From Promethearchaeota archaeon (GTDB lineage: Archaea; Asgardarchaeota; Lokiarchaeia; Sigyniarchaeales; SOKP01): DNA of 64,000 nt. Positions within the stretch are counted from its first letter, which is position 1. Each line of letters begins with the position of its first letter. The DNA is taken from contig JAHPZA010000001.1 of the NCBI GenBank assembly GCA_019058445.1, forward strand, positions 64,001 to 128,000, given 5' to 3'. Below the pieces are notes generated by a model. It was not told the DNA's origin, searched no databases, and was given only the letters and a program-made list of their open reading frames with translations. This document shows, piece by piece, positions 27,750-27,861 of the stretch. The position numbers and the translations under genes were made by a program.

Positions 27750-27861
27750 GAGAAGGAGATCAAAATTCAATCCAAAACTCCAAATACGAGGGAGTGTTAG
27801 GCTTTAAAAAGGCTAACGGGGGCGAAATGTAGGCTAGGATGGAATTAATAGATTCCTTCTC
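27750..27861 (-). ncRNA. Candidate structured small RNA
   Basis: Terminal stem GAGAAGGAGATC/GATTCCTTCTC; inner stem; two hairpins; minus-strand TTTAAATA (27883-27890) ends 21 nt before the stem. Confidence 0.5.

Follow-up and report, generated by a model that had tools for sequence, protein, structure and literature searches.

An uncatalogued, multi-copy family of predicted folded small RNAs in Loki-type Asgard archaea

Introduction

What does a 112-nt unit with paired ends in the genome of a Promethearchaeota archaeon encode, on which strand would it do so, and how is it related to a similar-looking unit at 8.6 kb? The unit lies at 27750-27861 of a 64,000-nt stretch of contig JAHPZA010000001.1 (positions 64,001 to 128,000 of the forward strand), hereafter called the window. 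Among known organisms, the Asgard archaea stand closest to eukaryotes. A preliminary description of this DNA had proposed an undescribed family of structured RNA read from the minus strand, with a host copy and an island-borne paralogue or mimic, the units at 27.7 kb and at 8627-8744 sharing an overall plan and a 9-mer. Here we examine these proposals by comparative analysis and consider what the RNA might do.

Results and discussion

Features of the locus and choice of strand

Read on the minus strand, from 27861 to 27750, the unit runs from GAGAAGGAAUC to GAUCUCCUUCUC with its ends paired, and contains a hairpin (GUUAGCCUUUUUAAAGCCUAAC), a C5 tract (GCCCCCG) and a second hairpin (ACUCCCUCGUAUUUGGAGU); the preliminary description had placed these features, the TATA box ahead of them and the 9-mer correctly. 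We call this unit A1, the window copy of family A, and the 8.6-kb unit B1, the window copy of family B. Their parts are given below, with bit scores from a family B covariance model (R1) and from a narrow (R2) and a broad (R3) model of family A.

27750..27861, minus strand: predicted family A small-RNA gene, copy A1, 112 nt (R2 115 bits, R3 80 bits; syntenic orthologues in species G003 and G007)
27882..27890, minus strand: TATA box TTTAAATAG, -29 to -21 from the first base of A1 (read in the sequence)
27851..27861, minus strand: 5' strand of A1 stem P1, RNA 1-11 (fold and consensus fold; all 8 outer pairs covary across the family)
27837..27846, minus strand: 5' strand of A1 stem P2, AAUUCCAUCC, RNA 16-25 (fold and consensus fold)
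27818..27836, minus strand: unpaired 5' side of the A1 internal loop, UAGCCUACAUUUCGCCCCC, a degenerate form of the family core CAUUGGAUUUCGCCCUCU (family alignments)
27796..27817, minus strand: A1 apical hairpin GUUAGCCUU-UUUA-AAGCCUAAC, family P3 (9 of 9 pairs with compensatory changes, 97% of cells paired)
27777..27795, minus strand: lineage-specific A1 hairpin ACUCC-CUCGUAUUU-GGAGU (fold; contains the 9-mer at 27783-27791)
27764..27773, minus strand: 3' strand of A1 stem P2, GGAUUGAAUU, RNA 89-98 (fold, consensus fold and covariation)
27750..27761, minus strand: 3' strand of A1 stem P1, RNA 101-112 (fold, consensus fold and covariation)
8627..8744, minus strand: predicted family B small-RNA gene, copy B1, 118 nt (R1 125 bits)

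Folded alone, A1 reaches -28.6 kcal/mol on the minus strand (z -3.9 against shuffles) and -34.6 kcal/mol on the plus strand (z -4.9), and since both strands beat their shuffles a single sequence cannot decide between them. The comparative data point to the minus strand: the consensus fold of six homologues from the genus has an energy of -27.2 kcal/mol there, compared with -11.7 kcal/mol on the plus strand, and several pairs of P2 and the apical hairpin in homologues and paralogues form G.U wobbles on the minus strand, whose plus-strand counterparts would be A.C. The minus strand is therefore the predicted RNA strand of family A. A plus-strand reading, backed by one G.U pair and by the lower single-sequence energy, is ruled out by the comparative fold.

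Family A copies have their own TATA box approximately 26 nt upstream and a pyrimidine/T run directly past the 3' end. Across 77 non-redundant copies, a T-then-A-rich block is position-specific at -33 to -24 (T 48-77% at -33 to -28, A 45-68% at -27 to -24), and a U/C run begins at +1 past the 3' end (T 56-77% over +1 to +10). On the opposite strand of the same 77 copies neither the promoter nor the terminator signal is seen.

Membership, spread and fold of family A

A blastn search from A1 returned a single paralogue within the genome and, in four members of the genus, orthologues. The narrow model R2, built from six sequences (A1, its paralogue and the genus orthologues), finds eight solid family A copies in this genome and detects the family in 17 of the 24 genomes searched from the same family-level clade, so that the possibility raised in the preliminary description, that no further members exist, is set aside by the covariance-model scan that it had itself suggested. 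The broad model R3, in which A1-type sequences make up 2 of the 78 training rows, scores A1 at 80.4 bits (E 3e-14, positions 1-113). Among 16 genomes of three sister families R2 found no copy, and in five sister-family genomes, three of which are single-contig assemblies, family A is absent at E values up to 1, so that the searched sister-family genomes that are cultured or closed are without it. An exact scan of species representatives for the family core gave at least 118 sites and, among the matches listed, all 80 records come from MAGs labelled as Asgard or as unnamed archaea. Viral contigs contain 36 exact 15-mer matches to the core, which we attribute to chance, as none of them scores with the family A model. 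As far as searched, family A is confined to one family-level clade of Loki-type Asgard archaea.

At gathering thresholds the 64-kb window matches no Rfam 15 family, and a search of 27600-28000 at E values up to 10 gives a single 7.8-bit noise match lying outside A1; the comparison with Rfam put forward in the preliminary description thus returns no family for the unit at either gathering or permissive thresholds. ARAGORN predicts no tRNA or tmRNA gene in the window, and a full-text literature search returned nothing on these RNAs. With neither an Rfam match nor literature for them, we take it that little Asgard non-coding RNA has been catalogued.

In an alignment of 76 distinct family A copies that was fitted to the model, and hence favours the structure, all 31 modelled pairs show compensatory changes, 403 cells are changed on both sides of pairs, and paired cells amount to 90.8%, compared with 30-60% when the partners are slid, with none of 500 shuffles reaching the observed values. 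Taken with the strand signals and the lack of an Rfam match, this agrees with the proposal of a structured RNA of an undescribed family on the minus strand. Comparison of the sequences leads us to regard 27750-27861 as a real gene, predicted to specify a folded small RNA of an uncatalogued multi-copy family in Loki-type Asgard archaea.

The consensus order is P1, a short loop, P2, AACAUUGGAUUUCGCCCUCU, a hairpin (AUUAAACUC/GAGUUUAAU), UCUCUCCCU with a U-rich run, P2' and P1'. In this arrangement the closing stems P1 and P2 stack and keep a large internal loop open, with a covarying hairpin as its cap. Stem sequences vary freely among copies. Of the two loop strands, the 5' one, CAUUGGAUUUCGCCCUCU, is nearly invariant, and the 3' one is conserved as UCUCUCCCU followed by the U-rich run, the U-tract itself being only moderately conserved. 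The core, in the form AUUGGAUUUCGC(C/U)CU or AUUGGAUUUCGCC(C/U)U, is present in 36 of 38 copies of a set obtained with a model of A1- and A2-type sequences alone, for which the core was not used as a search key.

A1 is not typical of its family in this region. Its core is degenerate (CCUACAUUUCGCCCCC), and that of the G003 orthologue is likewise aberrant; A1 retains AUUUCGCCC of the family core AUUGGAUUUCGCCCU, CCUAC stands where the family has AUUGG, and among the family alignments UUGGA is missing from A1 and its G003 orthologue only. In addition, the hairpin at 27777-27795 takes the place of the pyrimidine-rich 3' loop strand of the family; at the equivalent position the G003 orthologue has another small hairpin and most other aligned copies have no stem. 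All A1 stems are kept despite approximately 20% sequence divergence from the G003 orthologue. Having lost UUGGA, A1 may be diverging in function or decaying.

Multiple copies of about 110 nt with inverted ends, some of them near a segment duplicated at 97% identity, might also suggest a DNA-level repeat, a MITE or mobile-element relic whose terminal inverted repeats would be the paired ends seen here. Transposase-recognised ends, however, are expected to keep their sequence, whereas the terminal helices of family A differ among copies yet stay complementary, with wobble pairs that are valid on one strand. The promoter and terminator are position-specific within unrelated flanks, A1 is syntenic in three species, no family A member was found in viral contigs, and an informal look at flanks of A copies shows no target-site duplications. 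We find an origin as a DNA repeat barely credible.

The aptamer-like appearance of a conserved internal loop between covarying helices, together with the T-run after the closing stem, would suit a cis-acting leader or riboswitch-like element of the adjacent gene. The gene downstream of family A is nevertheless co-oriented in just 18 of 56 loci (32%) and convergent in 27 of them, and A1 itself faces the 3' end of its neighbour, its locus lying 3' of, and convergent with, a HypB-like GTPase gene in three syntenic species that include G003 and G007. Neighbouring gene families are also unrelated: A and B copies adjoin genes for a permease, a ThrRS editing domain, an aminotransferase, a radical SAM enzyme, an Hsp20, an enoyl-CoA hydratase and proteins of unknown function, and all-against-all BLAST and Pfam comparisons found no conserved neighbour protein. 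A role in cis is accordingly very hard to reconcile with these loci, and we consider it highly unlikely.

Relation to family B

R1 finds seven full copies of family B in this genome, in addition to shorter variants, and the family occurs in 22 of 24 genomes of the clade. When the B copies are aligned with MAFFT and not fitted to the model, compensatory changes appear at 16 pairs, and none of 500 shuffles attains the observed values. The layout is P1, an invariant box CUGGAUUUUUGUCUUUUGG, a hairpin, CUGAUUU(U/C)GCCCUCCUCCCCCUAUUUAAUUUUUG, a second hairpin and P1'. The box CUGGAUUUUUGUCUUUUGG is invariant in 25 of 25 aligned B copies and absent from both A1 and the family A consensus. A small peptide was rejected as the product of family B, its sole open frame being broken by a 1-nt indel between copies.

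Four short B variants of this genome (G000), at C6:656411-656504, C6:657012-657102, C6:42147-42214 and C3:~650620-650647, retain only the invariant box (C)UGGAUUUUUGUCUUUUGG, set in unrelated closing stems; two of them stand in tandem, 500 nt apart. In viral contigs, four B-core matches score with the B model, at best with 42 bits. This best B-like RNA lies at L248:43-140 on an IMG/VR contig of 224,826 nt that is catalogued as viral, and which could represent a virus, a provirus or a mis-binned host contig.

Family B resembles family A in its length of 112-120 nt, closing stem, GAUUU(C/U)GCCCUC box, promoter and terminator layout, multiple copies and host clade. It differs in having a three-way layout (P1 and two hairpins) in place of a single extended stem with an internal loop, in the additional invariant box CUGGAUUUUUGUCUUUUGG, and in that the covariance models of the two families do not detect each other. 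Short unpaired C/U-rich boxes (GAUUUCGCCCUC and CUCYCCCUAUUUU..AUUUUUG) are found in both, as are UGGAUUU and an AUUUUUG-type U-tract beside a helix.

The 9-mer on which the preliminary description had partly based the kinship of the two units, CCUCGUAUU, is present at 27791-27783 in A1 and again at 8656-8648 in B1. As a sign of relatedness it does not hold up: a match to B of nine or more letters turns up in 297 of 2000 dinucleotide-shuffled versions of A (15%), the 9-mer is replaced by CCUCUUGUU in the G003 orthologue of A and by CCUUGUAUU or CCUUCUCUU in other B copies, and its positions are neither equivalent nor collinear, being a loop strand in A and a hairpin in B. The 9-mer common to A1 and B1 is a chance match.

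A more demanding comparison is provided by the models and the consensuses. With filters off, R1 scores A1 at 1.7 bits, compared with 125 bits for B1, and its 12.8-bit match near A1 is mostly outside the unit and out of register; among its matches in the genome at E values up to 10 there is no A copy. R2 gives no in-register match to B1; the highest R3 scores, 12.6-13.6 bits on two of seven B units (E 0.6-0.9 in 25 kb), are in register and on the correct strand. Pairwise alignment of A1 with B1 is at chance level (458 of 2000 shuffles as good). The family consensuses, in contrast, align at equivalent positions (68-100 and 68-99) with a score that 3 of 2000 shuffles attain, the match spanning CUCYCCCUAUUUU..AUUUUUG, and the 12-mer GAUUU(C/U)GCCCUC occurs 7 times in 4.6 Mb, each time within an A or B gene.

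It could be argued from these last observations that both units belong as paralogues to a single RNA family, of which one is host-borne and the other island-borne or a mimic. The plan is the same in both (closing stem, unpaired box, UUAR-initiated hairpin and pyrimidine-rich strand), the restricted 12-mer, the consensus alignment and the R3 scores on two B units are in keeping with it, both families are confined to the same clade, and B1 borders a segment for which close relatives show no synteny. Cross-searches with all three covariance models are nonetheless not significant, the A1-B1 alignment is at chance and the 9-mer neither conserved nor collinear, both families have many host copies, and in other genomes the 8-kb surroundings of 80 A copies contain no B copy. 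We judge a single family improbable, and read A and B as two families with common boxes, in which the 8.6-kb unit is no paralogue in the ordinary sense. Of the likeness that had been proposed, the layout and two short unpaired motifs stand, and membership of one family is not supported. We hold the case for a distant common origin about evenly balanced; the common layout and motifs may stem from such kinship or from a partner that both families share.

Three of the A copies here have a B copy at a distance of 0.05-4.6 kb, an arrangement that does not carry over to other genomes, where 80 loci around A copies hold no B match. A canonical A copy stands 54 nt from B2 (C1:55124-55236), the A-B pairing being specific to this genus. 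Weak family-A-like remnants, scoring 19 and 31 bits with R3, lie at window 8811-8927 (plus strand) and G000:C9:198845-198956 (minus strand), where they are divergently oriented from, and within about 100 nt of, B1 and B3, respectively.

Genomic context

The preliminary description had set a host copy against an island-borne paralogue or mimic. For the families this contrast fails, as the genome has at least eight A and at least seven B copies and most of them lie amid ordinary host or housekeeping genes. An island as such is plausible between ~8.75 and 22.2 kb, with B1 at its edge beside a TIR-domain gene: segment 8750-22212 is without synteny to the closest relatives, which resumes at approximately 22213, and 3.2 kb of it (13645-16847) is 97% identical to C9:189279-192480 on another contig. 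The segment looks like a recently active mobile island. The gene that adjoins B1, at window 7745-8521 on the plus strand, encodes a 258-aa CAP12/Pycsar-effector TIR domain protein (PF10137, E 5e-38). A k-mer spacing scan found no CRISPR arrays.

Possible functions

The variable helices of family A display invariant C/U-rich strands, the genome contains Shine-Dalgarno-like sites and its 16S rRNA has a 3' end, GGAUCACCUCCU, with the motif CCUCCU; it is this combination that leads us to favour pairing in trans. At -20 to -3 of 3277 long ORFs, AGGTG, GAGGT, AGAGG and GGAGG show a 3- to 6-fold enrichment; such Shine-Dalgarno-like sites precede a minority of genes in this genome. A1 is thus somewhat more probably than otherwise a stand-alone gene of a trans-acting sibling small RNA, whose C/U-rich boxes would pair with such mRNA sites. 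In the mechanism we envisage, a helical scaffold would display the unpaired boxes, these would pair with purine-rich, Shine-Dalgarno-like sites (AGAGG, GGAGG), and the family A copies would act in trans as sibling small RNAs, the 8.6-kb unit being a member of a second family, B, of like plan and boxes. When the genome was scanned, with wobble pairs allowed, for the complement of the 17-nt core, no long complementary target emerged: the matches were only the small-RNA genes themselves and scattered one-mismatch sites, with no evident pattern.

The invariant stretch of ~18 nt, kept across genera, exceeds a typical pairing seed, and a protein-binding or tertiary motif fits it about as well, if not better. 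Family A, and likewise B, might instead be the RNA of a ribonucleoprotein or a protein-sequestering decoy, with invariant loop strands that would bind a protein, for example an Sm/Lsm-type ring. That the ~18-nt core is almost without substitutions while every helix covaries is in line with this, as are the presence of UGGAUUU, GAUUUCGCCCUC and an AUUUUUG-type U-tract beside a helix in both families and the failure to find an extended antisense target. The gene neighbourhoods, however, offer no candidate protein, the U-tract is just moderately conserved in family A, and a Y-RNA-like form would lack its protein, as no TROVE/Ro60 gene was found in the genome. A protein-bound or decoy RNA therefore seems to us rather unlikely, if well worth weighing. 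That A and B are Asgard Sm/Lsm partners in particular, with UGGAUUU and the AUUUUUG-type boxes beside helices as ring-binding sites, we regard as very improbable; if true, they would be archaeal relatives in kind of eukaryotic Sm-class RNPs.

The trans-acting sibling RNA that we prefer has parallels in bacteria. LhrC1-5 of Listeria, and RsaE/RoxS and other UCCC-motif RNAs of Staphylococcus, are sibling small RNAs of AT-rich Firmicutes whose C-rich boxes are exposed. Family A is like them in having several diverged copies per genome with variable stems and invariant unpaired C/U-rich boxes, complementary to Shine-Dalgarno-like purine tracts, and in its stand-alone genes with their own promoter and terminator in an AT-rich genome. 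It belongs to another domain of life and is not known to have sequence or structure homology to them; a long double stem closes the large internal loop that holds its boxes, which in the bacterial RNAs lie in hairpin loops, and its invariant stretch is much longer.

Among archaeal RNAs, Klein, Misulovin and Eddy reportedly described HgcC, HgcE, HgcF and HgcG in 2002 as GC-rich structured small RNAs of AT-rich archaea. Family A resembles these in being an orphan RNA gene of stable fold whose GC enrichment sets it apart from AT-rich archaeal intergenic DNA, and differs in its clade, its multiple copies and the absence of any Rfam match for A at E values up to 10. With archaeal box H/ACA RNAs it has in common a lower stem, an internal loop of two single strands and an upper stem. 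It lacks an ACA past the lower stem, where A1 has UUAAUA and the family a U/C run; the upper stem is a plain 9-bp helix with no K-turn or K-loop, its loop strands do not vary with a target but are invariant, and there is no Rfam H/ACA match. A box C/D sRNA was rejected, the 112-nt RNA containing neither RUGAUGA nor CUGA. Y RNAs and Sm-class snRNAs share with family A a long end-to-end stem, a pyrimidine-rich internal loop and an AUUUUUG-like tract beside a helix; family A has no conserved bulged-C Ro site, no strict U-tract and no Rfam match. A Y RNA was rejected as the identity of A1, PF05731 (TROVE/Ro60) having no match in the genome, which is 92.6% complete.

What is new here is a clade-specific, multi-copy family of predicted small RNAs, with strong support for its fold and an exposed sequence that is nearly invariant, and a second family with common boxes in the same genomes. 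The covariance models and coordinates are ready for mapping onto metatranscriptomes or enrichment cultures, and the short conserved motif could be used as bait for an mRNA or protein partner. Should that partner be an Sm-like protein or a translation-initiation region, it would give a first insight into RNA-based regulation in this lineage.

A candidate permuted 5S rRNA gene

5S rRNA was rejected as the identity of A1: RF00001 has no match at the unit, 5S-like halves lie elsewhere in the genome (C4:391578-391721), and family A has eight diverged copies. No 5S rRNA is detected in this genome with RF00001 even at E values up to 10, and the RF00001 cut-off is reached in none of the 24 genomes of the clade, compared with 9 of 11 in a sister family. 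The minus strand of G000:C4:391578-391745 holds a candidate circularly permuted 5S rRNA gene, in which the halves are swapped (3' part at 391721-391654, 5' part at 391622-391578), with the break in loop C and a TATA-like box ahead. The leader of this candidate, at G000:C4:391730-391745, reads GCAUUUCGC...GGUUAAACUC and has AUUUCGC and UUAAACUC in the same order as the core and hairpin of family A, a likeness that may well be coincidence.
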